Shown: piece by piece, positions 11,464 through 25,200 of the stretch | Layout: each line of letters opens with the position of its first letter | Numbering within the stretch: the first letter of the stretch is position 1 | Assembly (NCBI GenBank): GCA_903845125.1 | Contig: CAIMWS010000521.1 | Span: 7,069 to 71,068 of the forward strand | Origin: an uncultured Verrucomicrobiota bacterium | GTDB taxonomy: Bacteria; Verrucomicrobiota; Verrucomicrobiia; Limisphaerales; UBA1319 | DNA length: 64,000 bases | Direction: 5' to 3' | Notes under the pieces: generated by a model | Seen by the model: only the letters and a program-made list of their open reading frames with translations | Database searches by the model: none | What the model was told of the DNA's origin: nothing | Position numbers and translations under genes: made by a program

Positions 11464-14400
11464 TTATCGGTTCCGGCCCATACTCGGGTGGTCTTTCCTG
11501 GAAAGGGTTTGCGGGCCAACCCACCGGGTATTGTATTTTGTGATCCAGGCGTCATCCAAACCAACGGGGCGTACCTGGTGGCCATAAGCCTGATCGTCCA
11601 TGCCGTGGAAGGGGAAAGGCTCCACCGTCGTGCCGCATTCAACATGAAAGTCTGAGTCCTTGTCCCAACCGATGGAATAGAAGAAGAAATCCCGCACGTA
11701 TCCCGGTGGTTTGGCTGGCAGGCCATCAACCGCGAAGGAGAGGGTAAGTTCGTCGCCCCCATTGATCAATACCAGGGCGTTGTCTTTCCTGGCCAACAAT
11801 TCATCGACTCCCCCATACCGCGTGCACCAACCGGCGGGAGTGATCCGCCAAGGGGGATCCGGCATCGTTTGGGCATATTCCGGCGTCAACGGGAATTGCC
11901 ACGGCAATTGGCGGAACGCGCTGAAACCACGCCAGTGCAGATCGGTCCGGCTCGGGGCCAGGCGCGTGATGCGCAAGGGCGCTTCGCTGGCGCGTTCCCA
12001 TAACTCAGCCTGGTCCCAGTGCAGCTCAAAGGCCGTGCTGATCCGCAAACGCCGACTGCCCGGCGGCAGCTTGCCGGTGAGATCCACCAAGATCGTCTTG
12101 GTTTTGCCGCACGGCACCCCCATGGACAAATCGACCGGTCTCCAAATGGGCGCCGCTCCGGAAGCCGGCGCCTGGGCTGCGGGCAGCTCCACTTCCAATT
12201 GCGGGAAGGGAAACGGCAAATCCGGATCATGCGAGCCGGCCACGTTGGCCATTCCTCCGCCGAATCTCAGCCAACCGTTAAGCACGAGCACCAGCGGACG
12301 CTCCACCGGCAGCGGGCCGAAATCCAGCGTGACACTGCTGGGCTCGGCCAAACCACGCAATTGGGGGATGCGTATTTTGGCCGGCGAAACCATTTGGCCG
12401 TCGCTGGCTTTTAATTCAGCGGTCACCTCCTTGCCTTGGTGGTTTTCCGCGTGCAGCAGCGGATGGGGATGGTGCAGGCCAATCAGTTCATGCGGAATAA
12501 ACGGTTTGCCCGGCAGCATTTTGCTGGTGGTGCACACTTTGATTTCCGGGGGGTGATCCACCGCCACTAATTTTGCTTCGTCCAGGTATAGCACTTCGCG
12601 CAACTCCTCCGTGACCTGCAGCAAATATTCCCCCCCCTTGGGTGGCAGCCGCGATTCGTCGCCCAAGGCGATATATTCCTCCGGATCAGCTTCCACAAAA
12701 CGCGTATCGGAAACCCGCAATCCCAAGGGTGAAGCCCCCAGGATATCGGTCACGAAACGGAAACCAGTCCCGTCCCAGGCATACAAATAGGGGCAGGATC
12801 CCGTGGGCTGCTCCAGCTCCATCAAATTCCATACCGTATGGGGATCGGCTTGCAGCTCGAATAACACGGGCAGCGTGAGATCCGACCACCGGGGTTTGAC
12901 CACTTCCGGTTTGGCATTTTTCCCCATGCCGATTTCCACCGGCAGTTCCGTCACCGTCCGCAAGGTGCGCCAGTGTTCCGCTTTCACTTCGATGCGCACC
13001 CCCAACCCGCTCGCGTTGGAGCGGGTGCCCAGCAATCTCAGTTTAAGCTGGTGATTGGCATTGCCACCCTCGTTGCGCAGCAACCGCAAACCACCGGATT
13101 CCAGACAGGCCAACAGGTCACTGTCGCCGTCCTGGTCAAAATCGGCGACGTGGACCGAAAACACCCGTCCCGTTTTGTGCTGATCCAATCCCAATTCCTG
13201 GGTGGTTTCCTTAAATCCCGCCTGGCCGAGGTTGCGCCAGATCCGCAGACCTTCACCCGCGGCCAGGATATCCAGCCACCCATCATTGTCGTAATCGAAC
13301 AGCTTGAGCTGCCGGACTGGCCAATCCCCCAAAGGCAGGGAAACCGGCTGGCTCATCCCGCCATAAACCACTTCCAAGTGATTTGAAGCGGCCAGGACCA
13401 GGTCCATGCGAAAATCGTTGTTCAAATCGCCCGCCGCCAGGCAACTGGCCACCGGCCACGAAGCGGGGGAATTGGTGGGCGCCAGCCTGCCCCCCCGCTC
13501 TTTGATTAAGACCATCGGCGGATACCCATCCCTGGCGATGATGACATCCAGCAGATCGTCACCGTTCCAATCCTCCACCAGGATCTGGCGAACCCCGGTG
13601 ACCGAGGCGGGGATGCCGGAGGTGGCAGTGATGTCCTTGAAATACATCGGGCCCAGGTTGCGGAGCAGGCGGGGTTCGCGATTGGTGGGTGAAATCAGCA
13701 GCAGATCGAGTTTGCCGGTTAAATCCAGGTCGACCAGCACTCCCTCCAGGCCGGATTGGTTTTTCATTCCAGCAAAGGCGGTGGCGTCACTGAATGCGCC
13801 ATTGGTGGCGAATTTGACAATTTGCACACCTTTGGCTCCCAATAGCACCGCATCCTCATAGCGGTCGTTGTTCAAATCACCCACCAGGCAGCGCAAATCC
13901 CCGGCGCCTGGGGTGCCGGGCAAATGTTGGGCGTGTGGCTGAAAGGTTCCGTTGGTGTTGAGCAACAGCCGCACACCGCCCTCCCCCTCGCCCACCAGCA
14001 GATCGTTCTGGCCGCGTTGGTTGATATCAAAAATCCCCACCGGCGCATGGTAGTTCGTCCCCTTCCCGCCGAAGGCTTTTTGGCTGATATCCGCAAAGGT
14101 AACTGGCACCCCTTGTGAAGTCGGTTGGTCCAGCACAAAAGGCACCCGCATCTCCGTATAGGCGCAACGTTCGAAATAGCCTGGATTCGCTGGGGGTGGC
14201 GGATTCTCCGCGATGATCCGGGCATGCAGTTGGGCCTCCTGCTGGGCCTCGTCATTTTGTCCCCGGCGGGCCAGCGCCTGGCTGAGCAGGAAATGCGCGC
14301 GCTGGTGCCTGGGCTCCCACTGCACCACGTCCCGCAACACTTCGATGGCTTCCGCGTATTGGCTGACGCTCATATGCGCCTGGGCCAGTTGGAAACTGGC

Positions 14401-14865
14401 GGCATTCACCCGGATATCCATGTCCCGGCACTCCTGCAGGAACTGTATGGCATTGGTCGCATGGCCCAGGCGCAGAGCGGCACACCCGGCGACGAAACGC
14501 GCAGCTGCCGACTGTGGGTCCAGATGCAATGCTTCGCGGGCCACTTGGAGGGCTTTTTCACCCAAGCCAGCCAGGAGACAGGCGTTGGCTAGATTCAGTT
14601 GTGCATCCGCATTGGCCGGCTGCAGGCTTACTGCTTGTTCAAAGGCGGCGACCGCATTCGCCTGGCGCTGGTCATAGCGTTTCTTCCCCTCATTCATCCA
14701 GTAACCAAAATCGCGCGCCTCAACCTTTTTTTCTGGTATCACCTCGCGTTTGGGATCCGACTTCCCACAGGAAGCCAGGAACGCGATCGGCAAAAGTGCC
14801 AGGCCCAGAGATAGGGCCTGCCCAAGCCGTCTGCAAAAAGCGGATTTCGTGCTGCTGAAAGTCAT
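11464..14865 (-). CDS. Lipoprotein with TPR + FG-GAP/VCBS repeats + ASPIC/UnbV region + large uncharacterised C-terminal domain
   Basis: Lipobox FLASC; TPR helices; GDLNNDRYED, DLDLTGKLDL, DWNGDDLLD, DYDNDGWLD, DFDQDGDSD repeats; SNASGLGVRIEV; then GSCPYLYAWDG domain. Confidence 0.8.
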   Translation of the reverse strand: MTFSSTKSAFCRRLGQALSLGLALLPIAFLASCGKSDPKREVIPEKKVEARDFGYWMNEGKKRYDQRQANAVAAFEQAVSLQPANADAQLNLANACLLAGLGEKALQVAREALHLDPQSAAARFVAGCAALRLGHATNAIQFLQECRDMDIRVNAASFQLAQAHMSVSQYAEAIEVLRDVVQWEPRHQRAHFLLSQALARRGQNDEAQQEAQLHARIIAENPPPPANPGYFERCAYTEMRVPFVLDQPTSQGVPVTFADISQKAFGGKGTNYHAPVGIFDINQRGQNDLLVGEGEGGVRLLLNTNGTFQPHAQHLPGTPGAGDLRCLVGDLNNDRYEDAVLLGAKGVQIVKFATNGAFSDATAFAGMKNQSGLEGVLVDLDLTGKLDLLLISPTNREPRLLRNLGPMYFKDITATSGIPASVTGVRQILVEDWNGDDLLDVIIARDGYPPMVLIKERGGRLAPTNSPASWPVASCLAAGDLNNDFRMDLVLAASNHLEVVYGGMSQPVSLPLGDWPVRQLKLFDYDNDGWLDILAAGEGLRIWRNLGQAGFKETTQELGLDQHKTGRVFSVHVADFDQDGDSDLLACLESGGLRLLRNEGGNANHQLKLRLLGTRSNASGLGVRIEVKAEHWRTLRTVTELPVEIGMGKNAKPEVVKPRWSDLTLPVLFELQADPHTVWNLMELEQPTGSCPYLYAWDGTGFRFVTDILGASPLGLRVSDTRFVEADPEEYIALGDESRLPPKGGEYLLQVTEELREVLYLDEAKLVAVDHPPEIKVCTTSKMLPGKPFIPHELIGLHHPHPLLHAENHQGKEVTAELKASDGQMVSPAKIRIPQLRGLAEPSSVTLDFGPLPVERPLVLVLNGWLRFGGGMANVAGSHDPDLPFPFPQLEVELPAAQAPASGAAPIWRPVDLSMGVPCGKTKTILVDLTGKLPPGSRRLRISTAFELHWDQAELWERASEAPLRITRLAPSRTDLHWRGFSAFRQLPWQFPLTPEYAQTMPDPPWRITPAGWCTRYGGVDELLARKDNALVLINGGDELTLSFAVDGLPAKPPGYVRDFFFYSIGWDKDSDFHVECGTTVEPFPFHGMDDQAYGHQVRPVGLDDAWITKYNTRWVGPQTLSRKDHPSMGRNR

Positions 14866-14871
14866 TGTCCC

Positions 14872-14900: not shown

Positions 14901-15017
14901 GACGGGAGCGCGGAAACGCAGTGAAGAAGCGACTTTATTCGAGCGGGAAATTTCCCCATTCCACGCTCTGGATACACACACAATCCCGCACTATTACTCA
15001 GAAAATACTGGTCTGTG

Positions 15018-15464
15018 TCAGTTGGTGTGGATCTCCGGATGACGGATGCGTGCGCCCAAGTTGGCGGTCCAGCCCATCAGGCCGGAGCAACCCAAAGCCA
15101 GCAGCAACAGGATGGCCAAATAAGCTTTAGGAAGGTTCCTGCCTTTGCGGAAGAACAACAGACCGATCAACGACACAAATCCCAAAACCAATATGCCCGC
15201 CAAAGCCAGCACGGCTATTTCCGAATGCTGATCGCTGGGATCCAGAGGGATTCCGGGCGCCACCCGGCGCAGCATGGCGGCGGCCAAAGGTCCGGTTTGG
15301 TGGGTCGGCCAGGCCAGCAAGGCGGTGAAAATGAACACCAGCAGACTGGTCCGCTTTAGTTCCTCGCTACGCTTCAGCAAGCCAAGCAGCAGGAGGCACA
15401 ACCCAAAAAATGCGCCGGCAATGGGCGCGTGCGCAATCAACAAATGCCAGTGTGCGGAATTCAT
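15018..15464 (-). CDS. Four-TM membrane protein, DUF2231-like, His-rich
   Basis: HWHLLIAHAP N-terminus, four hydrophobic helices, QHSE, C-terminal IRHPE; ATGA overlap with upstream gene. Confidence 0.65.
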   Translation of the reverse strand: MNSAHWHLLIAHAPIAGAFFGLCLLLLGLLKRSEELKRTSLLVFIFTALLAWPTHQTGPLAAAMLRRVAPGIPLDPSDQHSEIAVLALAGILVLGFVSLIGLLFFRKGRNLPKAYLAILLLLALGCSGLMGWTANLGARIRHPEIHTN

Positions 15465-16042
15465 AATTCAAGTGCGATCCGGACCACCACTCCCCCCATA
15501 ACCTGGCCCGGTTTGATATCTTTCCGGGGACTGTCCGGATGCTGATTGTGGCAACTGGCACAGGAGGCATGAACCGCCACATCCGGGTACACGGCGGTGA
15601 AATACCAGCGCCCCCCCAGCATTTCCTCGGAATAAAACGGCTGCCCCGGCTGCCTGGCCACCGCCTCCAATCCCTTTTTTTCGATCGCCGTTTCCGGCGC
15701 ATTGCGCTGGCGGAGCGGTTGGAGCGAGCGCAACACATACGAAAACTCAACGCCTTTGGCGGCTGCTTTTTCAGAGTTCATCCGAAACATTTCACAAGGA
15801 TTCGGGCAACTCTTCGGATCCGCCAATTGAGCTACCCGGTCAGTGTAGACTTCCCGGTCGGAGGAGATCACCGCGCGCAAGGCGTCCGCCACATCCTGGG
15901 GTTTGATGGCCACCGCGAGCTTTTTCTTGGCGGGAGTTTCGCTTTTTTGCGCCAAGCCCATGCAGTTGGCCAGCATCAGGACCAAAACCAGCCGAAGTAA
16001 AACCGGCCAGGGAATGAGTTTGGTTTTCATCTGGTGTTTCAC
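15461..16042 (-). CDS. Periplasmic monoheme c protein, Tll0287-like / DUF3365
   Basis: Signal peptide; R..YT, SL.P...NAP...E, FTAVYPDVAV..CASCHN (15548-15562), GQVMGGVVVRI; GTGA overlap with upstream gene. Confidence 0.8.
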   Translation of the reverse strand: MKHQMKTKLIPWPVLLRLVLVLMLANCMGLAQKSETPAKKKLAVAIKPQDVADALRAVISSDREVYTDRVAQLADPKSCPNPCEMFRMNSEKAAAKGVEFSYVLRSLQPLRQRNAPETAIEKKGLEAVARQPGQPFYSEEMLGGRWYFTAVYPDVAVHASCASCHNQHPDSPRKDIKPGQVMGGVVVRIALEL

Positions 16043-17232
16043 TTTCCCGAATATTTCCTGAATCGTCCATTCTGAAATTCCAGCAACTCCAGTTGTGCGA
16101 TCCGGCTTCCCCCCCGTTCAAACTGCAGCGGACCGCTGGCTCCGGGTTTAGTGTAAGCGGGCGGGAAGGCGCGGAATGAATCCTCGCCAGCCTGGCTTAA
16201 ACCGGCCAGCAAAAGCGCCACCGCATCCCGGGCCCTGGCGGCAGTGACATCCGGCACGGTTCCATGGCGGACCTGAAAATCAGCTTCAAAATCACGGCGA
16301 ACCGCCTGGCTGGCCTCATCCTGGACAATGGCGGGAAGCAAAAACCCTTCCGCGGCGGATCCAGCTTCCGTGCCAAACGCGGAACCCTGCAAATGACTTG
16401 GCCCCGCCAGCACCCCGCCATACCCCGCCTGGCGCAATGATTTCACCGCCTTGCCGGCCACCACGGGATCGAGCCAGAGCAGGATGCCATCCGGTTTGCG
16501 CACCAGGAGATCCTGGCACAAATCATTCCAGTTGCCCAATAGAGGCGCCAAAGCCATCGTTTTGTCAAGCAAGCCCCCAGCCTTCGCGGCGGCTTTGGCC
16601 AAATCGGAAGCGGCCTCGCGTCCCGGCCTTTCGGGGGGCACCAAGGCGCACCAATGGAAACCCTGGCTGGCTGAAATCTGTTTTACCGACGCCAATAGCA
16701 GACCGGCTTCCGCCTGCGTGCCAGGCACAAGACGAACCAGCCAGGGAATGCCAGCGCCCAGCACCGAGGAATCGGCGCATAGGGATATGACCGGCGTGGC
16801 GGTGCGCCCCGATACCTGCAATGCCAGGTGGGCAGGCGCCCCACCCGGGGGGGTGATCAAACCTCGCACCCCTTCATCCAGAACCATTGATCCGGCTTCC
16901 TCGCCATCGGTTCCCCATTGCCCGATACGGCCACGCACCAGCAACCTCGCCCGGACACCCAAATCCCGGTTCGCTTGCGCCAGACCAATTTCAGCTCCCC
17001 GGCGCAAACTTTCCGCCTCGGCTTCCTCGGGCGGAAGCAGGAGGCCAATGGTAAGCGGCAGCAATGATGCGTCAGCCTGAGCGGGATCTGGTTTTCCAGC
17101 CTCATTTTGGAACCGACCAGCAGGGGATGAATATGCACTACCGAGGAAAAGCCACGCCAGACAGCAAGCCTGCCATCGTTGCCAAGGGGCATTTCCAATT
17201 TTCGGCATAAATCCCGGGCGGCGTCCGCACAC
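16039..17232 (-). CDS. Type I periplasmic binding protein (LivJ/branched-chain amino-acid-binding fold), divergent
   Basis: Signal-like N-terminus; TIGLLLP..RRGAEIG.., GTEAGSAAEG, AARARDAV, GASGPLQF; start may be ATG 17208. Confidence 0.7.
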   Translation of the reverse strand: MCGRRPGFMPKIGNAPWQRWQACCLAWLFLGSAYSSPAGRFQNEAGKPDPAQADASLLPLTIGLLLPPEEAEAESLRRGAEIGLAQANRDLGVRARLLVRGRIGQWGTDGEEAGSMVLDEGVRGLITPPGGAPAHLALQVSGRTATPVISLCADSSVLGAGIPWLVRLVPGTQAEAGLLLASVKQISASQGFHWCALVPPERPGREAASDLAKAAAKAGGLLDKTMALAPLLGNWNDLCQDLLVRKPDGILLWLDPVVAGKAVKSLRQAGYGGVLAGPSHLQGSAFGTEAGSAAEGFLLPAIVQDEASQAVRRDFEADFQVRHGTVPDVTAARARDAVALLLAGLSQAGEDSFRAFPPAYTKPGASGPLQFERGGSRIAQLELLEFQNGRFRKYSGK

Positions 17233-17236
17233 ACCC

Positions 17237-18634
17237 TCACGGTTGGGCCGCTCTTAGTTTTTCCAGCCGGGTGATGGCCGGGACCGGCTGAAATTGCCAT
17301 TTGCCTTGTTTAAACTGGGCCATCGACATCGGCGCAATATTATCATTACGGCCATCGAAGATCATATGGCCGGTTATCCCATCCCATTCATCCAGGTTGG
17401 CGAGGTAATCGCGCACCCGATATCGATTGGGACCGGATTTGTTGATGGCCTCGATCATCAGCTTCGCCCCGTCGTAGCCGTAGGCAGCGTAAATGCCCGC
17501 TTTTTCGCTCCACCGCTTCTGAAACCGATCCTGGAATTCTACCCATGGTTTATCCGTGCGGTCAGGATTGAAAAAATAGCAGATGGTGGTGCCTTCGGCA
17601 GCTTCGCCCGCGTTCTTCGAAAAACCATCCTCCTTGAGGCGATCAAAACCGAAAAACTGCGCCGTGATGCCCGATTTCCGGAACAACGCTGCCGCAAATC
17701 CGATATCTTCCGGCTGCCCATAAAAAACCAATGCGTCCGGGTTGGCCCCCTTGATGGTATTCAATTGCTCAGCCAGGCTGCGGTCACCCGGTTTATACAA
17801 TAAATGCGCCACCGCCGGTTTGCCCAAGCGCCGGATATCGTTTACCAGGTGCATCACGCCCACCCGGCCGGGGCGGCTGCTTTCCCTCAAAATGGCCACT
17901 CGTTTGCATCCTCGCCGGTTGATGATCAAATCCGCGAGGCGGTAACATTGCTGCCGGTCGTCCGGGAAAACGCGGGAAATCCAAGGGATTTGAGTTTCCA
18001 TAAGGGTGGGATCCGGATCCGAGGTGTTGATGATGTAGGTCTCCGTCTTGAGGGTTACGCGCAGGGCCACATGGGTTGCGTCACCATCGATGGTTCCCAA
18101 GTAGCCCAGCACATCGGCGTCCTTGAAATCCACGGCAATGTTGGCGGCGCTGCCCCAGAGGGGCGAATCTTCCCTTTCCACGATTTCAAACGGCAGCTGA
18201 CCCGCTCTGCGGGAGGCATTTTCCTCCTCGAAAGCCAGCAATACGCCCAGCCGGGTTTGTTTTCCGCGCGCCCCTTCGGGGCCGTAAGGCGCCGGACCAA
18301 AAAGCCCCACTTTCAAGGATTTCAAATCCGGAGGATCCGGGTAATCCCGTCCCGGCCCCCGAAATGGCAAACGGGTGGTAAAGTAGCGATAATAGGGTTC
18401 CAGAGTTCGGAACGGCACCATTTCCTCGGGGGTGTTCGCGTAATAGGGATATTGTCCCGCGGGGAGGCCGCAGGTAGCCGGTTCGGCATTGGTGGTGGCC
18501 GCCTTGGCGATTGAAGGCTGAGCAGCTACTTTTTCCTCAGCCGCTTTTTCCGCCCAACTTGGCATGGGTAATATCACGCCCGTCAGCAAGCCGAAAAACA
18601 ACCGGCTTTGGCAAAGAAAGGTTAAGCGTTTCAT
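17237..18634 (-). CDS. Type I periplasmic binding protein (LivJ-like fold) with N-terminal extension
   Basis: ATG 18634 (MKRLTFL signal) preferred over the track start that overlaps upstream gene; KVGLFGP, SRVFPDD.QQ, AGEAAEG, AAYGYDG, WDGITGHMIFD. Confidence 0.8.
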   Translation of the reverse strand: MKRLTFLCQSRLFFGLLTGVILPMPSWAEKAAEEKVAAQPSIAKAATTNAEPATCGLPAGQYPYYANTPEEMVPFRTLEPYYRYFTTRLPFRGPGRDYPDPPDLKSLKVGLFGPAPYGPEGARGKQTRLGVLLAFEEENASRRAGQLPFEIVEREDSPLWGSAANIAVDFKDADVLGYLGTIDGDATHVALRVTLKTETYIINTSDPDPTLMETQIPWISRVFPDDRQQCYRLADLIINRRGCKRVAILRESSRPGRVGVMHLVNDIRRLGKPAVAHLLYKPGDRSLAEQLNTIKGANPDALVFYGQPEDIGFAAALFRKSGITAQFFGFDRLKEDGFSKNAGEAAEGTTICYFFNPDRTDKPWVEFQDRFQKRWSEKAGIYAAYGYDGAKLMIEAINKSGPNRYRVRDYLANLDEWDGITGHMIFDGRNDNIAPMSMAQFKQGKWQFQPVPAITRLEKLRAAQP

Positions 18635-18653
18635 AGGCTCAGACAAAATTTTA

Positions 18654-19799
18654 TCACTTGGCAGCGGCAACTTTGGGAACGCTGGGGCGCGGGGAGAAAA
18701 TGCCATGGCTCAAGCCGTTGGCAGTAGCAAACCAAGCTTCGTTTTCATCGGCCCAGATACCCAGGACAAAAGCATTGCAAATACCTGTTGGCAGAATCCG
18801 TTTCTCAGCCGCTTGCTTAGGCCGATGGATTTCGAGAATGCTCTCACCTTTGTCACCCAGCATATAATTTGCCCAATAAGTCCCATCGGTCACGGTGGCG
18901 GACCGGTCGGTGCCAATCCAGCAATACTTGCCCACGGGCCAGGCAAACTGCGTGAAATTCGACGGCAGCGGCGATTTATCCTGGACCCAGGTTTTCCAAT
19001 ATTTCCCATCGTAGCGAGACATGCCGAAATAGGTGTTCTGCCAGAGGACTCCATCCTTCCAGGCAATCCACGAGGTGATGTCGTTGATGGGACCGTCATC
19101 GGGCACCAAGTCATAATGGAAGTCGCCATCCGGGTCGTGATAGGCTTTGAACGTGCCTAATTGCGGATTGTGTTCGAGTATCCCCCCGCCCCAGACGCCA
19201 ATAAATACCACATCTTTTGCCCCTTTGATCGAATAGCACCACGGTTCGTGCATATTGGAATTGGTGTGATCGTATATTTTCCAGGCGCCGGTTTTTAAAT
19301 CCATCACACCCGCCCCGGCCGCCGTGGCCACCCATAATTTATCATCCGCCACATCGACCCCGTAAACCACGTTATTGGGCAGGCCGCTGTCAGTTTGGAC
19401 ATAACGGGTAATTTTACCGCCACTGAACTTATTAAGTCCCCGCATGGTACCAATCCAGAGATCCCCGGTTTTGGGATCCTCGACCATGCATAAAACCATC
19501 TTGTGCGTTAATCCATCCTCCGGCCCGTAGCGCTTGAACTTCCCGTTTTCTTCCCGCACACAAAGCCCATCCCAGGTGCCTATCCAAAGTTTGGAATCGG
19601 AAGTTTTCAGCACTACGTGTACCTTGTGGGCGGGTATCCCCTGATCGTGGCCAAAATTCTCGAAACGTTCAATGATTGGGAAGGGCAGACCCTCGGTGGT
19701 GGTTTCGCCGACTCCGCGCCCAGCGGACATCAAGAGGGCGCAGGCTGCGACGGTGGCGGCCCAAAGCGGCCTCGGATTGATGATTTTTCTGAATTTCAT
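18654..19799 (-). CDS. Secreted beta-propeller with two-component-regulator propeller (Reg_prop) repeats, stand-alone
   Basis: Signal peptide; repeats LWIGTWDGL, DGLTHKMV, LWIGTMRGL, SGLPNNVV, LPSNF, WFATANGL; no TM, kinase or Y_Y_Y part. Confidence 0.75.
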   Translation of the reverse strand: MKFRKIINPRPLWAATVAACALLMSAGRGVGETTTEGLPFPIIERFENFGHDQGIPAHKVHVVLKTSDSKLWIGTWDGLCVREENGKFKRYGPEDGLTHKMVLCMVEDPKTGDLWIGTMRGLNKFSGGKITRYVQTDSGLPNNVVYGVDVADDKLWVATAAGAGVMDLKTGAWKIYDHTNSNMHEPWCYSIKGAKDVVFIGVWGGGILEHNPQLGTFKAYHDPDGDFHYDLVPDDGPINDITSWIAWKDGVLWQNTYFGMSRYDGKYWKTWVQDKSPLPSNFTQFAWPVGKYCWIGTDRSATVTDGTYWANYMLGDKGESILEIHRPKQAAEKRILPTGICNAFVLGIWADENEAWFATANGLSHGIFSPRPSVPKVAAAK

Positions 19800-19825
19800 A
19801 AAGGCTTTGTTTTTGTTTTAGTCTG

Positions 19826-21796
19826 TCACAAGGTTTTTAAGTATTCAACCAAATCATTCAGTTGGTGTTTGTTGAAATAACTGGTCACGCCGTGCAAATC
19901 ATTGGTCTGGTAGGTGGTCCACAACTCCTCAAGGGTTTTGGCCCGTCCATCATGCAAATAAGGCGCCGTAAAAGCCACACCCAAGAGGTGGGGGGTGTCG
20001 AACATATCAGTGGTGTCGTGCGGCCCTTTGGTCCCCACCGAGCTGGAAAGGCGGTTGGAATACAGCGGTGGGCGATGGCAGGTATGGCATTGCCTTTCTC
20101 TCGGGATCGTTTTCCCGGTGGTGGTCATCGTCGCAAAAAAGATCCGTTTGCCGCGTTCCTGCTGCGGGGTTAAATCCGCATGCTGTTTACGCTCCCAACG
20201 GGGTGGAGGCTGCGAATTGAGAAAATGGCTCAGATCGTCCAGTTCGCGGGGCGGGATCGGATCCGTGCGCATCAGCACCCGCGCAAATCGAATCCCGCAT
20301 TGGATCGCCAAAGTCGGATTCTTGCCGATCCACTTGAACGGCCCGGTGCCGGCCACTCCCTGCAAGGATCGATTATCCAGCAGGTTGTCGCCAATGCCAT
20401 CGCCATCGAAATCGTAGGACAATCCATCCACGTGGCCATCCGGATGGCAGGAACGGCAGGAAAACTGCCTTTGATAGGTATATTTGGCGTCGGTAAAAAC
20501 CCGCTCCCCGCGGCGGATTGGATCGCCCGATCCGCCATCCCCCAGCGCGATCCGGCCGGCCGGTTTCAACGTGGCGGTATCAATGATCAATACTCCATCG
20601 TCCAGGCGCTCGCTGATCAAAACCCATTTGCTGTCAGGGCTGATCACCACCTGTCGTGGATTCCGGCCAGTGGGAATGCGGGCGATGACGTATTCCGACG
20701 ACAAGGTCAAATCCTCGATCGCCTCCCGGCGCGCCCCGGGTGAAGCTTTTTCAAGCCAGGCGGCCAGCCGATCCAAATCCACCACCGTCAACCGATCGCT
20801 GCCGCCGGAGGCGATGTAAGCCCGTTTGCCGGCCGGATCCACAGCTATGCCGGATGGATCCGCAAAATAATCGTGGGCCTCATCGAGAGGCATTTGGATG
20901 ATATTCCCCCGGTGATCGGAAATCGCCAACCCGCAGGACATCACCCACCCATTGGCAACCTGTGTAATGGGAACCAGGTTTCGCACTTTAATCAGCGGAG
21001 TAATGGCCCAGGATCTTTGCGGCACGGTAGCCACACCCTCCGCCAAATGCGCCGATGCAAACGTTCCCCGGATCAACATTTTGCCACTCCGGGGATCCAC
21101 CAAGGTCAATTCGGAATTGGCGGGCGCCAAATAATTCTCCGGCACCGCGAGCCGGTTGGCGGCAAAGGCCACCGTCCCATCCCGAGCAATGGCCACCGCA
21201 TACGGTTCCCGACCGCTTTGAGGCCGCGCCAACTCTTTCAAGGGCGAGGCCGAAAGCACGGAAAGGTTATCGGAAAGCGAGTTTGCCACCACCAATCGCT
21301 CCCCTTCCGGAGTGGCCGCGCACGCAATGGCCACCGGCGCCGATCCCACCGCCACGCTTTCCAATTCCTTGAACGACCGGGCATCCACTGCCACCACCCG
21401 GTCCGCATCTCGGCAGGTGATGTAAAGATGCTCGCCCTCCTGGTCGAGCACCAGCCCGAACGGCCGCCCTGGCACCGCCAGCCGACGGGTCACCTGGCGT
21501 GATCCAAGCTCCGCCTCCACCACCTCGTTCATTTCATCCAGGGCGATATAAGCTTTTTTGCCATCTGGAGAAACGGCCAAGCCAGCCGGCGCTGGATGCC
21601 GGGCACGGGGTTTCGACCAAGCCAGGCTCTCCGTCGCCACGTGGCAATGGGTGCAGGTGGTGAACCCCAGTTCCGGGCGCCCCGTCCAGCGCCTCACGTG
21701 GGCCACCGACCACGCATGCCCCCCATAGCCCGCCACCAGCGCGACTGCCAGGCAGCCAAAAAACCAAAGAGCGAAGGTGCTTTGTTTCATGGGCAT
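19826..21796 (-). CDS. YncE/YVTN beta-propeller fused to di-heme cytochrome c peroxidase/MauG-fold domain, plus extra N-terminal CxxCH (HzsB+HzsC-like architecture)
   Basis: N-terminal TM/signal; CTHCH 21641-21655; propeller repeats LAVSPDGKKAY, IAVDPAGKRAY, IPTGRNPR; GERVF..SCRSCHPDG 20444-20458; PFKWIG; RGKRIF..CHTCH 20075-20089; FDTPHL..TAPYLHDG; DLHGVT..DLVEYLKTL. Confidence 0.82.
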   Translation of the reverse strand: MPMKQSTFALWFFGCLAVALVAGYGGHAWSVAHVRRWTGRPELGFTTCTHCHVATESLAWSKPRARHPAPAGLAVSPDGKKAYIALDEMNEVVEAELGSRQVTRRLAVPGRPFGLVLDQEGEHLYITCRDADRVVAVDARSFKELESVAVGSAPVAIACAATPEGERLVVANSLSDNLSVLSASPLKELARPQSGREPYAVAIARDGTVAFAANRLAVPENYLAPANSELTLVDPRSGKMLIRGTFASAHLAEGVATVPQRSWAITPLIKVRNLVPITQVANGWVMSCGLAISDHRGNIIQMPLDEAHDYFADPSGIAVDPAGKRAYIASGGSDRLTVVDLDRLAAWLEKASPGARREAIEDLTLSSEYVIARIPTGRNPRQVVISPDSKWVLISERLDDGVLIIDTATLKPAGRIALGDGGSGDPIRRGERVFTDAKYTYQRQFSCRSCHPDGHVDGLSYDFDGDGIGDNLLDNRSLQGVAGTGPFKWIGKNPTLAIQCGIRFARVLMRTDPIPPRELDDLSHFLNSQPPPRWERKQHADLTPQQERGKRIFFATMTTTGKTIPRERQCHTCHRPPLYSNRLSSSVGTKGPHDTTDMFDTPHLLGVAFTAPYLHDGRAKTLEELWTTYQTNDLHGVTSYFNKHQLNDLVEYLKTL

Positions 21797-21814
21797 TTAT
21801 GAAGGATTAAGCGC

Positions 21815-23311
21815 TCATCGATATTCGGGTGCAACCGGCAGGGATGCCTTTTTCAGATCACCAAGGTTCACCGGCGGCAGCCCGGCCGCTATGGGCCGTA
21901 TATTTTGTGGGGACCGGTTGTGCGGTTCGTGGCAGCCCAGGCAGCTGCGGTTCTCGCCTCGCCGCACCCATATGCTGGGCGGCAGGCGCTGGATTACCTG
22001 GTCCTGGTCGTCCAACGCTTCAAAGCCCAACGGCACTTCGGCCGGAACGGTCACCAGGAAGGAACCGTCTGTTTGCGGAGTAATCTCCCCTAAGGCAACC
22101 AACTGGTTGGCCCCAGCCTGAGCCAGGATTCGGATCCGATGAATTTTGGAGGCAGCGGTGCTATTCGCAGCCTCGGGACGGGAAAAAAAGGCGTTCAGGC
22201 AGAGGATTGTTCCCGTGCTTTTCTCCGGCATCAAGGTGGATAGATGCCCCATCAGTGCGGCTTTGGGCATTAATGGAACGGCTTCCACCTCATCCCATTC
22301 GGGATTATCGAAGAGGGGGATGCCTAAGACCTTGGAACCGGGGGGAATCCGATATACCGCACTGGAACCTCTGACCTCCGGCTTCCCAGAAGCTCCCGCA
22401 TCGATGCAGGCCAGCCAACTGCCTTCCCGGTCCTCCTCCAACGAATGGCAGCGTTCCACAAGGAACTCAAACAGCGGGGTCCGGCTGGCGAACGGCTTGG
22501 CCATGCGCACCCCCTCCGCCGCATATTTCGGGCGGGCTTGGTTAGTGCCGGCCGCCAGGAACGCCACCGTGCCTGACAGAGATTCCCGGGGACGCCGCAC
22601 GAGGGGCGCGCCATGATCCTCCAAGGCGAAATGGGTGAACTCGGTGCCGTCATTGTTGATGGTGAACAAACCCAGGCGCGGCCTTTCCTCTCCCAGCGAA
22701 GAGGCGCGCACTGAAGTGAATAAAATCTTGCCATCCCGCAACACGGTGGGATCCATCGCCGGACTCGCCCCAAAAGTCAGCCGCTCCACCCTGCCTCCCG
22801 GCCCCTGGCGATAAAGAGCAGCTGGTTTTTCCGGCCGCCACGGATTGGCAGCGTTGGGCACTGGCGAACAAAAAACCAATTCCCCGCCCGCCAGCAGCGC
22901 AGGTTCCATGGCGCCACCGGCAACCGCCGTCAACAGGCGCGCCGGTTTCCCTCCCGGTTGAGCCTCATATATTTGCCAGCTTCCACCGGCTTTCGCTTTG
23001 CCAGCAAATAAAATGCGGGTGCCATCGGCACTGGCCACCGGGCCGCCGGCTGCGGACAGTCCGGCGGACAGCACCTGTTCCGAACCGCTGGTGAACGGAG
23101 GCTGCACCAACACTACCCGACTGCCCGGAGGATACCGCAAATCCAGCAAGTCTTCGGCGCCGCCCGCAGTCGGAATCCCAGTAGGAACCTGAGTGACGGC
23201 CATCCCCCCCGTAGGGAAAGACTCCCGGCATCCGGAGGACCAAAGGCTGACTAGCAACCCGGCCAGGATAACCAGGCGGCCTCGCATGCTGGCGGATAGA
23301 GGCCGAGGCAT
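21815..23311 (-). CDS. HzsA-related lipoprotein (TolB-like propeller + hydrazine synthase alpha middle domain), monoheme
   Basis: Lipobox WSSGC; SADGTRILFAG..WQIYE, DPTVLRDGKILF, LFTINNDGT; LGEITPQTDGSFLVTVPAEVP..EALD..WVRRGENRSCLGCHE (CxxCH 21929-21943). Confidence 0.75.
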   Translation of the reverse strand: MPRPLSASMRGRLVILAGLLVSLWSSGCRESFPTGGMAVTQVPTGIPTAGGAEDLLDLRYPPGSRVVLVQPPFTSGSEQVLSAGLSAAGGPVASADGTRILFAGKAKAGGSWQIYEAQPGGKPARLLTAVAGGAMEPALLAGGELVFCSPVPNAANPWRPEKPAALYRQGPGGRVERLTFGASPAMDPTVLRDGKILFTSVRASSLGEERPRLGLFTINNDGTEFTHFALEDHGAPLVRRPRESLSGTVAFLAAGTNQARPKYAAEGVRMAKPFASRTPLFEFLVERCHSLEEDREGSWLACIDAGASGKPEVRGSSAVYRIPPGSKVLGIPLFDNPEWDEVEAVPLMPKAALMGHLSTLMPEKSTGTILCLNAFFSRPEAANSTAASKIHRIRILAQAGANQLVALGEITPQTDGSFLVTVPAEVPLGFEALDDQDQVIQRLPPSIWVRRGENRSCLGCHEPHNRSPQNIRPIAAGLPPVNLGDLKKASLPVAPEYR

Positions 23312-23313
23312 GG

Positions 23314-25200
23314 TTAAGGTTCCTTCACTTTGAGGATCTGGTCGGCCGGCACATCACGCAAAGTCTGCTGGGTTCCGGAAGGCCAGCGGATTTCGATTTT
23401 TTCAACTATTTTGGCCTGGCCGAGGCCAAAGTGGACCCGGGGATCAGAGGTGCCTAAAAACCCTTCCTGGCAGCGGGCTTCCGCGCACCTGGTTTTTCCC
23501 CCTGCGGTTACCTTGATGCTGGCGCCAAATCCGTCACGGTTGCTTTTGGTGCCCTGCAAATGGAACGCCAGCCAGTGGTTCCCCGAGGCGTCCCGATTGT
23601 GCAGCAGGAACAACCGGTCCGCCATGGCCGTCACCAGCACATCCAGGTGCCCGTCATTATCGAAATCAAGCACATAGCTGCCACGCGCCCGGATCTTGGT
23701 TTTGAAATAAACACCACCCTGTTCCGCATCGTCCGCAAAGCTTCCATCCCCTTTGTTTTTTAACAGCAAGCTTTCCCATCCCACCATATGGTGTGCGTCG
23801 CCATTGGCAATGAAGCCATCCAGGAATCCATCATTATCGTAATCCAGGAAATTGCTACCCCAACCCACATATTGGGCGGTGATCGATCCCAAGCCTGAGG
23901 ACATCATGCGATCCTCGTAAATCCCCTTGGGTCCCCCCATGTATAGCGAACCATAACCCAGGCGCGACACCAGGATATCCGGGATCAAATCCCCGTTGCA
24001 ATCCCCAATGGCGGCCGTCATGGACCCCGCAGCCTCACCCAGCGCATTGAAAGCCGCCTGGGCTTTTAAAGCGATGTCCTGAAAATGCCCTTTGCCATCG
24101 TTCAAAAGCAGCATATTCGGAGTGCCGTCATTGCTGAGGTAGATATCCGGAGCGCCATCCCCATTGTGATCGAAAGCACAAACGGACATCGCCCGGTGGC
24201 CGGGTATGCGGATGCCTGCCTTTTCGCTGATATCCTCGAAGGTGCCGTCGCCCCGGTTCCGGTAAAGGATGTTGAACTCCGGCTTGTAGCCAAGTGGCCC
24301 AGGATAAGCGTCAGGATTGAAATACTGCTGGTAGTTGGGATCATAGGTCAGGTAGTTCGCCACAAACAAATCCAGCTTCCCATCGTTATCCACGTCCACC
24401 CAGATGGCACCGATGCCAGTACCTTTATGCCCCAACCCTGCTTTGTCAGTCACCTCCTCAAACCGGCCGTCGCCTTTGTTGTGGTAGAGGATGCTTTTGC
24501 CCACATTCACCACGAAAAGATCGGGGAATCCGTCGTTATCGTAATCGCCCGCGGCAGCAGAAATACCGTAGCCCATGCCCGCCACGCCCGCTTTTTCGGT
24601 GACGTCCTCGAAGGTGCCATTGCCCCGGTTCCGGTAAAGCCGGTTTGGCTGCCGCTTGGTGCCTTCCTTATGGTGTGTCACGCCATCCAAGGGACCAGGA
24701 TTGACGACGTAAATATCCATGAATCCATCCTGGTCGTAATCCAAAATCGCCGCCCCGGATCCGTTGGATTCGATGATATTGGCAATGCGCTCGTCGCAGA
24801 ATTGCTGCACAAAATCCAAACCCGCCTTGGGCGCGATATCTTCAAACAAATCCTTGGGGCCAGCCTGGATTGGGGGAGTTACGGTAAACTCCACATGCTT
24901 GGCGGCTGGCACTCCCGATTCTTTGGCATCCTTATTGGCCGCAGGGTTGCCCGCAGCCGCACCGGCCGCATCCTTCTTTTGGCAACCCGCCCCTCCCAAG
25001 ACCAGCAAGACGGAAACTGCGCCAGCAAAGAGCCTCCCCGGCCAACTTCCCATCCACCAGCTAGCCAATGAATGTTGCCTCCATGGCGCTCCCTGGAAAG
25101 TTTCGTCCGCGGATGGAACAGAATACAAAGCATGCCCCATGGAGGCTGTCAGGCAGGACAGGCTCTTCTGCAACGGTTCAAGGGGCTTTCGTTTGATCAT
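23314..25200 (-). CDS. CRTAC1 family lipoprotein (FG-GAP repeats + ASPIC/UnbV)
   Basis: Lipobox GGAGC; GSGAAILDYDQDG, NRLYRNRGNGTFEDVTEKAG, GDYDNDGFPDL, SNRDGFGA, DPRVHFGLG, IRWPSG; start uncertain (ATG 25200 or later). Confidence 0.85.
   Translation of the reverse strand: MIKRKPLEPLQKSLSCLTASMGHALYSVPSADETFQGAPWRQHSLASWWMGSWPGRLFAGAVSVLLVLGGAGCQKKDAAGAAAGNPAANKDAKESGVPAAKHVEFTVTPPIQAGPKDLFEDIAPKAGLDFVQQFCDERIANIIESNGSGAAILDYDQDGFMDIYVVNPGPLDGVTHHKEGTKRQPNRLYRNRGNGTFEDVTEKAGVAGMGYGISAAAGDYDNDGFPDLFVVNVGKSILYHNKGDGRFEEVTDKAGLGHKGTGIGAIWVDVDNDGKLDLFVANYLTYDPNYQQYFNPDAYPGPLGYKPEFNILYRNRGDGTFEDISEKAGIRIPGHRAMSVCAFDHNGDGAPDIYLSNDGTPNMLLLNDGKGHFQDIALKAQAAFNALGEAAGSMTAAIGDCNGDLIPDILVSRLGYGSLYMGGPKGIYEDRMMSSGLGSITAQYVGWGSNFLDYDNDGFLDGFIANGDAHHMVGWESLLLKNKGDGSFADDAEQGGVYFKTKIRARGSYVLDFDNDGHLDVLVTAMADRLFLLHNRDASGNHWLAFHLQGTKSNRDGFGASIKVTAGGKTRCAEARCQEGFLGTSDPRVHFGLGQAKIVEKIEIRWPSGTQQTLRDVPADQILKVKEP

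Follow-up and report, generated by a model that had tools for sequence, protein, structure and literature searches.

A conserved cell-envelope operon of Verrucomicrobiota with a heme-protein core distantly related to hydrazine synthase

The closest described systems are the 'clade III' clusters of hydrazine synthase (HZS) homologs reported by Hagglund et al. in 2025 (PMC12758564). In the part of that article considered here, these clusters have the same layout as the present operon feature for feature, the same Trp is stated to occupy the position of HZS gamma His144, and these clades are concluded not to be HZS. Similar clusters have been described more loosely in PMC10732223 and in the cold-seep study PMC11828985, which, in the portion drawn upon here, reports clusters of hzsA-like and fused hzsBC-like genes in ten phyla, with Verrucomicrobiae among the hosts, and takes them as anammox potential. 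The operon analysed here is a further member of this clade III group. An earlier note on this DNA had stated that no functional description of such a unit was known; this holds insofar as no experimental function of a clade III-type cluster was published in the literature found, but the cluster type itself was already in print (PMC12758564, same part).

Within the window, i.e., the whole stretch of 64,000 nucleotides that was analysed, eight co-directional ORFs were found on the minus strand, to which all features below belong. They encode a CRTAC1-like protein (23314-25305), an HZS-alpha-like lipoprotein (21815-23311), an HZS-beta-gamma-like fusion (19826-21796), a Reg_prop protein (18654-19799), two binding proteins, SBP1 (17237-18706) and SBP2 (16039-17232), a Tll0287-like protein (15461-16042) and a DUF2231-like protein (15018-15464). 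For CRTAC1, the most likely start is 25053 (MGSWPG...) rather than 25305. According to the coordinates, gaps of 2, 18 and 26 nt separate the first four genes in turn, and a gap of 19 nt precedes SBP1 if its translation begins with the Met at 18634 (taken from 18706, the ORF overlaps Reg_prop by 53 nt); a 4-nt gap between SBP1 and SBP2 and two 4-nt overlaps (SBP2/Tll0287-like and Tll0287-like/DUF2231) complete the arrangement. The eight products contain exactly five CxxCH motifs (alpha-like, residue 457; beta-gamma-like, residues 48, 447 and 570; Tll0287-like, residue 161) and, judged by eye from the translations, each has a hydrophobic N-terminus, a lipobox-like N-terminus with a Cys, or TM helices. 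Pfam and NCBIfam recovered FG-GAP/UnbV_ASPIC, HZS_alpha, propeller plus CCP_MauG, Reg_prop, Peripla_BP_6 (twice) and Tll0287-like (i.e., DUF3365) domains. The close spacing, heme motif count, named domains and signal, lipobox or TM helix on every product claimed in the earlier note are thus borne out, and the eight-gene unit is a real and strongly conserved cell-envelope operon. Possibly it has a ninth member, a gene coding for a TPR and FG-GAP protein of 1133 aa (11464..14865; domains from Pfam), co-directional and 152 nt downstream; 22 of 80 loci have a homolog (at least 39% identity over more than 300 aa) no farther than 10 kb away, at varying position and strand.

These 80 loci were kept out of 362 relatives in species-representative genomes, and gene order was counted over the loci long enough to test. 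CRTAC1 was found directly upstream of alpha in 69/69 testable loci, beta-gamma adjacent to alpha in 70/70, as the co-location check had it, Reg_prop directly after beta-gamma in 64/64 and SBP1 in 59/59; SBP2 directly followed SBP1 in 51/57, and the Tll0287-like and DUF2231 genes were present in 30/55 and 12/55. The order CRTAC1, alpha, beta-gamma, Reg_prop, SBP1 is unbroken in all testable loci, with tiny gaps or overlaps, in Verrucomicrobiota and some Acidobacteriota records. The present analysis adds this invariant five-gene core to the description of the operon. Since the Tll0287-like gene is missing from about half and the DUF2231 gene from about four fifths of the loci, neither can be essential to it. 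Such facultative genes would suit neighbours with separate functions, where alpha and beta-gamma may pair and the other six products lie outside one system; gene neighbourhood is by itself weak evidence of binding, and the binding model presented below covers the alpha/beta-gamma pair alone. We nonetheless regard this as unlikely, given an order unbroken at all testable loci (59-70 of 59-70) in both phyla and the median identities of CRTAC1, Reg_prop and SBP1 (66%, 60% and 56%), which exceed that of alpha (44%).

The alpha-like lipoprotein (498 aa; 21815..23311) combines a TolB/PD40-type propeller with an HZS_alpha heme domain bearing one CxxCH (PF18582, E 6e-13, along with PD40, Pfam). Its family profile matches 5c2v_A with an E of 3.2e-23, and 5c2v_A is also its best Foldseek match in the PDB (8.2e-21), with TolB as the runner-up (8e-10); the AF2 model has a mean pLDDT of 81. 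C28, located within a lipobox-like LLxAGC, is near-invariant. By alignment, the heme motif CLGCH (residues 457-461; 21929..21943) is the counterpart of HZS heme alpha-I, and its C457, C460 and H461 are at least 95% conserved among 79 sequences. The protein stops about 37 residues past this single motif and therefore lacks the heme alpha-II domain, and no Tyr occurs at the position of HZS Tyr591; judging from its sequence, it is a truncated form relative to HZS alpha. We newly point out a lone cysteine, Cys371 (22199..22201), whose neighbours 368, 370 and 372 belong to the predicted interface. At least 95% conserved in the 79 sequences and missing from the four long paralogs of the same genome that were examined, it is invariant and clade-specific.

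The beta-gamma-like fusion (656 aa; 19826..21796) consists of an N-terminal membrane helix, an extra heme motif, a 7-bladed YVTN propeller and a CCP/MauG-fold di-heme domain. It matches NF052342 (hydrazine_BC, NCBIfam; E 6e-46) and, above cut-off, CCP_MauG (Pfam; 1e-9), as well as 5c2v_B (1.8e-33) and 5c2v_C (1.6e-13) in profile searches, and its best Foldseek match in the PDB is 5c2v_B (1.2e-28, TM 0.88 of target). The AF2 model contains a helix at residues 5-38; for the di-heme domain alone it is poor, with pLDDT <50 over 441-512 and 572-639. The extra heme motif, CTHCH (residues 48-52; 21641..21655), adjoins the membrane helix, and C48, C51, H52, H33 and W60 are invariant in 70/70 sequences. 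The propeller loop RNLVPITQVANGWV (residues 272-285; 20942..20983) corresponds, when aligned to 5c2v_B, to the tunnel loop of HZS beta; N273, P276, G283 and W284 are invariant, and the tunnel-loop Glu of HZS is replaced by Gln or Ala. The profile and structure check against HZS thus yielded significant matches to all three subunits, HZS being the best PDB match for both proteins.

Within the di-heme domain, the gamma-I-like motif CRSCH (residues 447-451; 20444..20458) aligns with HZS gamma Cys102/Cys105/His106 and is conserved in 70/70 sequences, and the gamma-II-like motif CHTCH (residues 570-574; 20075..20089) in 68/70. Cys500 (20297..20299), which aligns to 5c2v chain C residue 126 (gamma 165), is the counterpart of HZS gamma Cys165, the third covalent heme link; this position is Cys in 52/70 and Asp in 17/70 sequences. 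Trp489 in PFKW (20330..20332; conserved in 69/70) matches, at the level of the motif, the position of HZS gamma His144 (PFRH), where CCP/MauG likewise has a Trp. HZS gamma Asp168 is matched by Phe or Arg in the alignment. Judged from the alignments, either of two residues may serve as sixth ligand to the gamma-II-like heme: H635, conserved among the 70 sequences and aligned to the HZS His within one gap-free stretch, or the near-invariant Y629, which aligns where a bacterial peroxidase has its Met ligand. MauG has a Tyr at that position. Together with the CCP_MauG match, weak MbnH and MauG family matches, the inter-heme Trp489 and the invariant alpha Cys371 adjoining the interface, Tyr629 would fit a MauG/MbnH-type maturase driven by H2O2 or O2, which would modify a partner (alpha, CRTAC1-like or Reg_prop) to generate a protein-derived cofactor or cross-link; the operon would in that case encode both the mature enzyme and its maturase. 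We hold this to be rather unlikely: the domain scores much nearer HZS gamma (1.5e-15) than MbnH (2.5e-6) or MauG (8e-3), H635 shares its gap-free stretch with the HZS His, the conserved heme that alpha itself carries at the interface points to catalysis or electron transfer more than to a role as substrate protein, and Pfam detected no quinone-cofactor enzyme family in the operon.

The model of the alpha/beta-gamma complex scored 0.82 (0.83, 0.82 and 0.82 in three runs), the best of 3 controls scoring 0.00. In the benchmark the mark was attained by 58/80 solved complexes and 2/110 mismatched pairs, counts that apply only roughly here because self-made alignments were used. The runs share at least 95% of contacts, with a partner pLDDT of at least 83. 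The predicted interface involves alpha residues 454-456 and 463-473, flanking the heme motif, and, on the beta-gamma side, loop 270-284 and residues 441-442, 462, 467-469 and 502-513, which surround the gamma-I motif; its core is formed by RNLVPITQVANGWV and alpha 463-473. Conservation of the alpha interface is 0.64 versus 0.43 elsewhere, a value attained by 1/10,000 random sets, and that of the beta-gamma interface is 0.72 versus 0.63, weakly above background (571/10,000 random sets attain it). The inter-heme tunnel of HZS sits where this predicted interface falls. The model thus passes its controls at the place of the HZS tunnel, although, a like complex (5C2V) being already solved, the pass may draw on that structure. 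Homology, fold, adjacency and complex model all agree with the HZS-like alpha plus beta-gamma layout proposed earlier, and none of the contrary outcomes set beforehand was observed.

Homology to three HZS subunits, an HZS-like predicted assembly and the retained gamma-I heme motif and Cys165 counterpart might be taken to indicate a genuine divergent hydrazine synthase in an organism with cryptic anammox-type chemistry, much as PMC11828985, in the portion considered, reads comparable clusters as anammox potential. This appears extremely improbable to us, as NCBIfam equivalog scores fall far under their cut-offs (alpha 47.9/800, beta-gamma 156.9/1250, beta 130.8/560, gamma 57/625) and the hydrazine dehydrogenase model, whose cut-off is 900 bits, scores no higher than 67 bits in this genome, which is 93% complete. 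Moreover, alpha lacks the heme alpha-II domain and has no Tyr where HZS has Tyr591, Trp replaces gamma His144, Gln or Ala the tunnel-loop Glu, and Phe or Arg gamma Asp168, for which the role of proton donor has been proposed (PMC12607021); PMC12758564, in the part considered, concludes likewise for these clades. The named relatives of the locus are Verrucomicrobiota, which, along with the hydrazine dehydrogenase result, supports the earlier view of a non-anammox bacterium. Judged by homology, the operon is a distant relative of HZS and not a hydrazine synthase, with no sign of anammox. Because the residues defining hydrazine synthesis are missing, 'HZS-like' applies to its architecture, not to its chemistry.

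The remaining products are likewise conserved to various degrees. At least 95% conservation is seen at 148/568 positions of the CRTAC1-like FG-GAP/UnbV_ASPIC propeller protein, a probable lipoprotein (23314..25053, ORF open to 25305; FG-GAP_3 6e-48, UnbV_ASPIC 2e-21, Pfam), at 93/381 positions of the Reg_prop beta-propeller protein, which has a signal peptide (18654..19799; PF07494, 4e-9), and at 95/489 positions of SBP1, a LivJ-type Peripla_BP_6 periplasmic binding protein (17237..18634, ORF open to 18706; PF13458, 1e-29) whose best-scoring relatives in the PDB bind branched-chain amino acids (3td9, 4e-17). The second Peripla_BP_6 protein, SBP2 (16039..17232; PF13458, 7e-20), is far more divergent (just 26/397 positions). 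The stand-alone Tll0287/DUF3365 (sCache_heme) c-type heme protein (15461..16042; PF11845, 3e-15) bears CASCH at 15548-15562, with C161, C164 and H165 conserved in 30/31 sequences. The 4-TM DUF2231-like membrane protein (15018..15464) matches PF09990 weakly (24.0 bits, under the 26.4 cut-off); His 7, 12, 80 and 142 are conserved in 13/13 sequences and, according to the positive-inside rule, would face the periplasm. The present analysis adds that this heme- and His-rich tail probably provides electron carriers.

Peripla_BP_6, Reg_prop and Tll0287/Cache-heme modules are best known in sensing or binding, and domain searches found no transporter genes near the binding proteins in the window, which would be consistent with a mainly non-catalytic periplasmic complex for ligand capture, sensing or scaffolding whose hemes would sense redox state or gases. 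Such a function seems quite improbable given the four conserved hemes, their HZS-like two-site arrangement and the conserved tunnel-type loop, and Pfam found no cytoplasmic signalling output domain in the operon. Furthermore, stand-alone Tll0287-type Cache-heme proteins are reported to be redox-like rather than sensors, with +123 mV and weak NO binding (bioRxiv 10.64898/2026.02.01.703092, in the part considered).

We consider it probable that the operon encodes a membrane-tethered periplasmic two-site heme oxidoreductase within a clade III-type envelope operon, with a core built like HZS without being HZS. This core would be a heme-protein complex of the alpha-like lipoprotein, with its TolB-type propeller and a heme domain holding one canonical His-ligated c heme, and the membrane-anchored fusion, with its extra N-terminal c heme, 7-bladed propeller and CCP/MauG-fold di-heme domain. 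With alpha docked on the fusion, the heme segment of alpha would lie against the conserved propeller loop and the gamma-I heme region. In our inference, which covers the electron path, the substrate and what each heme does, electrons would come in from the membrane side via the DUF2231 protein, whose four His would face the periplasm, the stand-alone Cache-heme protein, or both, and pass from the N-terminal heme to the gamma-II-like heme and then to the gamma-I-like catalytic heme. There a small diffusible substrate would be turned over, the alpha heme handling the product or a second substrate; the CRTAC1-like, Reg_prop and SBP1 proteins may be further periplasmic subunits or substrate-capture modules. 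As for the substrate, we would give roughly a quarter of the weight to small N-oxides (NO or hydroxylamine), a quarter to peroxide or O2 species and half to something else, including an amine or acid brought by the binding proteins.

Compared with HZS, the proteins of this operon have neither Tyr591, nor the heme alpha-II domain, nor gamma Asp168, and gamma His144 has become a Trp. They resemble HZS in keeping the gamma-I heme motif, and a Cys stands as the counterpart of Cys165 in 52 of 70 sequences.

The operon consists of eight co-directional open reading frames on the minus strand (15018-25305), separated by gaps of 2-26 nt or joined by two 4-nt overlaps. Pfam and NCBIfam searches assign these, in order of transcription, to a CRTAC1-like FG-GAP/UnbV_ASPIC protein (gene start probably at 25053); a 498-aa lipoprotein resembling the alpha subunit of hydrazine synthase (HZS), with HZS_alpha and PD40 domains (alpha, 21815-23311); a 656-aa HZS-beta-gamma-like fusion of a propeller with a CCP_MauG domain, for which the hydrazine synthase beta-gamma fusion is the top NCBIfam model at E 6e-46 (beta-gamma, 19826-21796); a Reg_prop propeller protein; two Peripla_BP_6 binding proteins, SBP1 (start probably at 18634) and SBP2, matched by PF13458 at 1e-29 and 7e-20; a single-domain Tll0287/DUF3365 protein of 193 aa (PF11845, 57.2 bits against a cut-off of 24.1); and a DUF2231 membrane protein, matched weakly. 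The five CxxCH motifs are distributed over alpha (one), beta-gamma (three) and the Tll0287-like protein (one). Both alpha and beta-gamma bear an ordinary export signal. At the N-terminus of beta-gamma, a long helix (residues 5-38 in the AF2 model) leads into an invariant block comprising H33, C48xxC51H52 and W60, which is an extra heme adjoining the membrane. A TPR and FG-GAP gene (11464-14865, minus strand) encoding a 1133-aa protein with an N-terminal TPR region lies 152 nt downstream of the operon in the same orientation. Scanning of 11000-25800 yielded no excess of promoter-like (7 observed versus 6.9 in shuffles) or terminator-like signals (23 versus 20.2), and the operon limits are consequently set by gene spacing only.

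To assess the relatedness of alpha to HZS, a profile of its family was built from 28 proteins. This profile matched the alpha chain of the Kuenenia stuttgartiensis HZS structure (5c2v_A) in three colinear stretches with an E value of 3.2e-23, TolB coming next at 2e-4. Beta-gamma matched the HZS beta chain over the entire propeller (5c2v_B, E 1.8e-33) as well as the gamma chain (5c2v_C, E 1.6e-13); when its di-heme part was searched alone, 5c2v_C was retrieved at 4e-15, with bacterial peroxidase behind at 1.6e-7. AF2 models had a mean pLDDT of 72.7 for beta-gamma and 81.2 for alpha, the propeller being confident and the heme domain poor. The closest PDB fold to the beta-gamma model is 5c2v_B (E 1.2e-28, TM 0.88 of target, 25% identity), and the closest to the alpha model is 5c2v_A (E 8.2e-21), followed by TolB at about 1e-9. 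The homology of alpha and beta-gamma to HZS is real. The eight-gene co-directional heme operon described in the earlier note, with its reading frames, domains and five CxxCH motifs, is confirmed, and the HZS-like alpha plus beta-gamma layout proposed there is supported by significant profile and fold matches to HZS alpha, beta and gamma.

Such homology could suggest that the operon encodes a genuine hydrazine synthase, a possibility that we reject. Against the NCBIfam HZS equivalog models (NF052339/40/41/42), alpha reaches 47.9 bits for a cut-off of 800, and beta-gamma 156.9 of 1250 for the fusion, 130.8 of 560 for beta and 57.0 of 625 bits for gamma. The bis-His heme alpha-II domain is absent from alpha, whose only CxxCH is at residue 457 of 498, about 37 residues before the end; its alignment to 5c2v_A stops at chain residue 563 of 782. 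At sequence level, alpha also lacks the heme alpha-I site with Tyr591 as proximal ligand and zinc at His587: from the heme motif on it reads CLGCH-EPHN, with no Tyr four residues past the His, and the available text of PMC12758564 describes a two-residue gap at the Tyr591 site in clades I-III of the HZS homologs. In beta-gamma, the gamma-I heme motif (C447, C450, H451) is kept in 70/70 sequences. With PDB chain C numbering fixed by the first heme motif (offset 39), Cys500 aligns with and is the putative counterpart of gamma Cys165, the third covalent link in HZS; this position is Cys in 52 and Asp in 17 of the 70 family sequences. Trp489 (PFKW), found in 69/70 sequences, stands at the position of HZS gamma His144 (PFRH). 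Gamma Asp168, proposed as the distal proton donor for NO reduction in the portion of PMC12607021 available, is aligned to the invariant Arg503/Phe504, and the Asp is absent. The beta tunnel loop is kept, N273, P276, G283 and W284 being invariant, with Gln279 and Ala281 at the aligned tunnel-loop Glu positions (the Mg-binding Glu253 of HZS; inferred chain B offset of 34). Finally, hydrazine dehydrogenase was not found in the genome (8.5 Mb, 93% complete), in which the best NF052343 match scored 67.1 bits for a cut-off of 900. Scores far under the NCBIfam cut-offs, together with the missing alpha-II domain, Tyr591, His144 and Asp168, decide against hydrazine synthesis. The evidence gathered here does not support the reading of such clusters as anammox potential that appears in the available text of PMC11828985.

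We then modelled alpha (residues 36-486) together with beta-gamma (residues 108-656), each with its own alignment. The proteins were cut for size, which left beta-gamma without its membrane helix, its extra heme and its first propeller blade. The complex scored 0.82 (0.83, 0.82 and 0.82 in the runs) versus 0.00 for the best control, a pass by a mark that is reached by 58 of 80 complexes of solved structure and by 2 of 110 mismatched pairs; these counts are rough since own alignments were used. Because HZS is a solved structure, this pass may stem from likeness to 5C2V, and it speaks for likeness, not for binding. Between runs, 95% or more of the contacts recur, with a partner pLDDT of 83 or higher. 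In the predicted interface, alpha residues 454-456 and 463-473, on both flanks of the heme motif, would contact the beta-gamma loop 270-284 and residues 360-367; the same segments are predicted to touch beta-gamma 441-442, 462, 467-469 and 502-513, which surround the gamma-I motif and Cys500. Conservation at the alpha interface is 0.64 versus 0.43 elsewhere, with 1 random set in 10,000 reaching that value; at the beta-gamma interface it is weakly higher (0.72 versus 0.63), 571 of 10,000 random sets being as high. An invariant lone cysteine of alpha, Cys371, lies beside predicted interface residues; none of the 4 long paralogs examined has it.

The operon type occurs in hundreds of species-level genomes, 362 relatives being found in the genome collection. 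The alpha family counts 145 matches in the protein collection, the named ones belonging to Verrucomicrobia or Opitutaceae. For gene order, we analyzed the best 80 of 362 contig stretches encoding a relative, with one genome per species; most of these are from Verrucomicrobiota, while five records are of Acidobacteriota type and one bears the label Limnocylindrales. Labels among the related loci include Lacunisphaera, Oleiharenicola and Pedosphaera (L058, L038 and L062). As the 80 loci were selected by likeness to alpha, the following counts apply to this subfamily and not to HZS homologs at large. Neighbours were counted by tblastn on the same strand and in fixed order wherever a locus was long enough to test. 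Among these best 80 loci, CRTAC1 (69/69), beta-gamma (70/70), Reg_prop (64/64) and SBP1 (59/59) were found at every testable locus, SBP2 at 51/57, the Tll0287-like gene at 30/55 and DUF2231 at 12/55, while a homolog of the TPR and FG-GAP gene lies within 10 kb of the operon in 22/80. The five-gene core (CRTAC1, alpha, beta-gamma, Reg_prop and SBP1) is rigidly conserved. Median best-segment identity is 66% for CRTAC1, 60% for both beta-gamma and Reg_prop, 56% for SBP1, 44% for alpha and 41% for SBP2, and alpha is the core member evolving fastest. The earlier note had looked to co-location in other genomes and to an interface between the two proteins for its idea of one HZS-like complex: the two genes are adjacent in 70/70 testable loci, and an interface is predicted at 0.82 versus 0.00 for the best control.

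In 32/64 loci, a RidA/YjgF-family gene (PF01042) lies between Reg_prop and SBP1 (e.g., 14575-15183 of the related locus L017); it is missing from the window's operon. These genes share 65-77% identity between loci and encode a conserved N-terminal extension of about 90 residues, with no obvious export signal. The product also lacks the Arg of canonical RidA. As a pointer to imine or amine chemistry the gene is weak, given that it is missing from the window, has no obvious export signal and is without that Arg. The beta-gamma gene of another locus (L051:11403-13379) is seemingly interrupted by an in-frame stop, and in two further genomes the beta-gamma match is split (residues 14-224 and about 211-656; G617:C27:13262-15262 and G587:C10:110447-112453). 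Pseudogenes, split genes or errors in the assembly could account for these interruptions.

At E <= 1e-50, alpha was found in 0/400 other genomes of a phylum-wide sample with 3 candidates scored per genome; since alpha paralogs are many and so few candidates were scored, this result is not read as absence. Genes resembling beta-gamma were detected at E <= 1e-20 in 59/401 genomes of a class sample, the window's own genome being one of them. Close beta-gamma orthologs (at least 61% identity) were limited to 4 other genomes of that sample, all of the same order. A genus of the class sample with mostly complete genomes of 2-3.5 Mb (g8) regularly carries one beta-gamma-like gene of about 610-656 aa with 27-29% identity. 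Fusions of a propeller and a di-heme domain are therefore distributed far more widely than the alpha-linked operon.

In the window's own genome, the HZS_alpha-type heme domain is very strongly expanded: the alpha query gave 53 matches, located in about 36 open frames of 476-1530 aa over many contigs. Consequently, an HZS_alpha match alone is no marker of anything. Only three of these frames adjoin a beta-gamma-like gene. One long paralog of 989 aa is encoded within the window itself, 7 kb from the operon (4838-7807, plus strand); it combines an F5/8 type C (discoidin) domain with a complete HZS_alpha domain and contains two CxxCH about 50 residues apart, like hemes alpha-I and alpha-II. Two more beta-gamma paralogs, with 30-32% identity, are found on other contigs beside long two-heme alpha-like genes. 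On contig C405 (16000-34000, locus L094), HZS_alpha genes of 918 and 894 aa are located upstream of a 613-aa propeller and CCP gene, while on contig C99 (1-12166, L095) a 632-aa propeller and CCP gene is upstream of a 963-aa HZS_alpha gene. About 3.8 kb away from the C405 cluster is a gene for a hybrid-cluster protein (Prismane/Hcp), which might connect it to hydroxylamine or NO.

The genome is also rich in multiheme cytochromes, with open reading frames bearing 20, 13, 11, 10 and 10 CxxCH (C303:2411-5008, C316:1566-8353, C250:2828-5179, C27:33-2711 and C485:36786-38243). Within this multiheme set, one is OmcA/MtrC-like (183 bits for a cut-off of 209), some are DmsE-like decahemes and one is an 8-heme protein resembling the HAO family; such a set in a Verrucomicrobiota genome may point to electron transfer that is extracellular or of an unusual periplasmic kind. 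Closer to the operon, a 369-aa frame (9038-10147, plus strand) with weak HEAT-repeat and cytochrome c matches (E about 5e-4) may encode another exported heme protein. A further CRTAC1-like FG-GAP/UnbV_ASPIC protein of 1250 aa, with two UnbV_ASPIC stretches, is encoded at 35627-39379 on the minus strand. Loci labelled Opitutaceae have one or two extra CRTAC1 paralogs and a TPR/FG-GAP gene before the operon on the same strand.

A literature search for the CRTAC1 family, ASPIC or UnbV found nothing on a bacterial function among the papers listed. The PDB relatives of SBP1 and SBP2 are branched-chain amino-acid binders, and SBP1 is well conserved (95 of 489 positions at 95% or above) while SBP2 is poorly so (26 of 397). 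No ABC permease or ATPase is encoded by any of the frames of at least 250 aa scanned from 4.8 to 43 kb of the window. In the DUF2231 protein, four His are invariant in 13/13 sequences and, by the positive-inside rule, would all be on the periplasmic face; its family profile retrieved 0 PDB matches at E <= 1, Atlas comparisons retrieved unnamed or DUF2231 clusters only, and a literature search on DUF2231 found nothing relevant. The Tll0287-like protein keeps its CxxCH in 30/31 sequences. [quoted passage not shown] According to the available text of bioRxiv 10.64898/2026.02.01.703092, stand-alone Cache-heme proteins are redox-like (+123 mV, weak NO binding) and lack such informative gene associations, whereas the member described here sits in a conserved heme-enzyme operon. 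The same text gives His/Cys ligation for the Tll0287 heme, while the operon family has no conserved Cys, C83 being present in 11/31 sequences only.

From this arrangement, we propose that electrons would enter at the membrane side through the DUF2231 protein and/or the Cache-heme protein, where present, and would then pass from the N-terminal heme of beta-gamma to the gamma-II-type heme (H574, the candidate sixth ligand being H635 or Y629) and on to the gamma-I-type catalytic heme. A small molecule would be converted at the latter, which would communicate with the alpha heme across the conserved loop. The CRTAC1-like protein, Reg_prop and SBP1 could be further subunits or substrate-capture parts. 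We consider it a long shot that the operon's products form a periplasmic channelling enzyme of a new kind, with two sites and an origin shared with HZS. Such an enzyme would generate a reactive small intermediate at the Cys-linked gamma-I-type heme, e.g., hydroxylamine from NO, or activated oxygen, which would move past the propeller loop to the alpha heme and would there be coupled to an amine, amino acid or aromatic acid supplied by the orphan LivJ-type binding proteins; the clade-specific Cys371 would be a heme ligand or a nucleophile. Were this the case, heteroatom-bond-forming or amine-oxidising chemistry would exist outside anammox, binding proteins would act as substrate-delivery subunits of a redox enzyme, and the operon would be a living model of a pre-anammox HZS ancestor. 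HZS was long thought to be without relatives and, to our knowledge, these clusters are its nearest kin outside anammox bacteria. The chemistry of the operon, once worked out, would show the role of the HZS ancestor and end false anammox calls. Judging from the available text of PMC11828985, HZS-homolog clusters are misread as anammox markers in metagenome surveys.

The novelty assumed in the earlier note does not hold, such clusters being already in print. As far as its available text goes, Hagglund et al. 2025 (Genome Biol Evol, PMC12758564) reported four clades of homologs from non-anammox bacteria, with alpha co-located with a fused beta-gamma, and concluded that conservation does not extend to the key residues and that the carriers are no hidden anammox bacteria, giving no function. 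In their clade III, an FG-GAP/CRTAC1 gene is upstream of alpha, alpha is upstream of the fused beta-gamma, and two substrate-binding-protein genes are downstream; alpha is missing heme alpha-II and its final ~100 residues, and beta-gamma has one extra heme motif and a Trp at gamma 144 (PMC12758564, available text). Compared with this description, the window's operon presents every layout and motif feature given there for clade III and is one more member of a cluster type of uncharacterised function described in 2025, so its value is modest. The available clade III text makes no mention of the invariable Reg_prop gene, the Tll0287-like and DUF2231 tail, the RidA-family gene (half of loci), alpha Cys371 or the clade's Cys165 counterpart. 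Our analysis adds the invariant Reg_prop and SBP1 partners, a probable electron-entry tail, Cys371 of alpha and a predicted interface at residue level. In the accessible parts of two other reports, 'previously undescribed HzsABC' clusters from cold-seep MAGs of ten phyla, including Verrucomicrobiota, were taken as anammox potential, with AlphaFold-Multimer complexes (Nat Commun 2025, PMC11828985), and 'hzs-like' genes of tunnel-biofilm MAGs were suggested to belong to a wider enzyme family with other substrates (FEMS Microbiol Lett 2023, PMC10732223). Those clusters, like ours, pair a non-Brocadiales hzsA-like gene with a fused hzsBC-like gene, have signal peptides and include Verrucomicrobiae, but residue-level exclusion of hydrazine synthesis is not given in these parts.

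Compared with di-heme CCP, MauG and MbnH proteins (PF03150, 39.4 bits for a gathering score of 25.6), beta-gamma has the two c-heme motifs (residues 447 and 570), the inter-heme Trp (W489) and the PY(L/F)HDG segment, but its di-heme domain lies behind a propeller and a membrane anchor, is nearer to HZS gamma and carries a Cys where HZS has its third thioether. CCP uses Met, and MauG Tyr, as sixth ligand of the electron-transfer heme; in beta-gamma, Y629 aligns with the Met-ligand region of 1iqc_A and H635 with the HZS His. In comparison with HZS itself (5C2V), identity is only about 18-25%, the operon's beta and gamma are fused, membrane-anchored and provided with an extra heme, the proteins have ordinary export signals, and alpha precedes beta-gamma in gene order. 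Yet the alpha propeller and heme middle domain, the 7-bladed beta propeller including its inserted loop, and the CCP-fold di-heme gamma with its gamma-I motif and Cys165 counterpart are all homologous, and alpha is predicted to dock onto beta-gamma with the hemes opposed across the loop.
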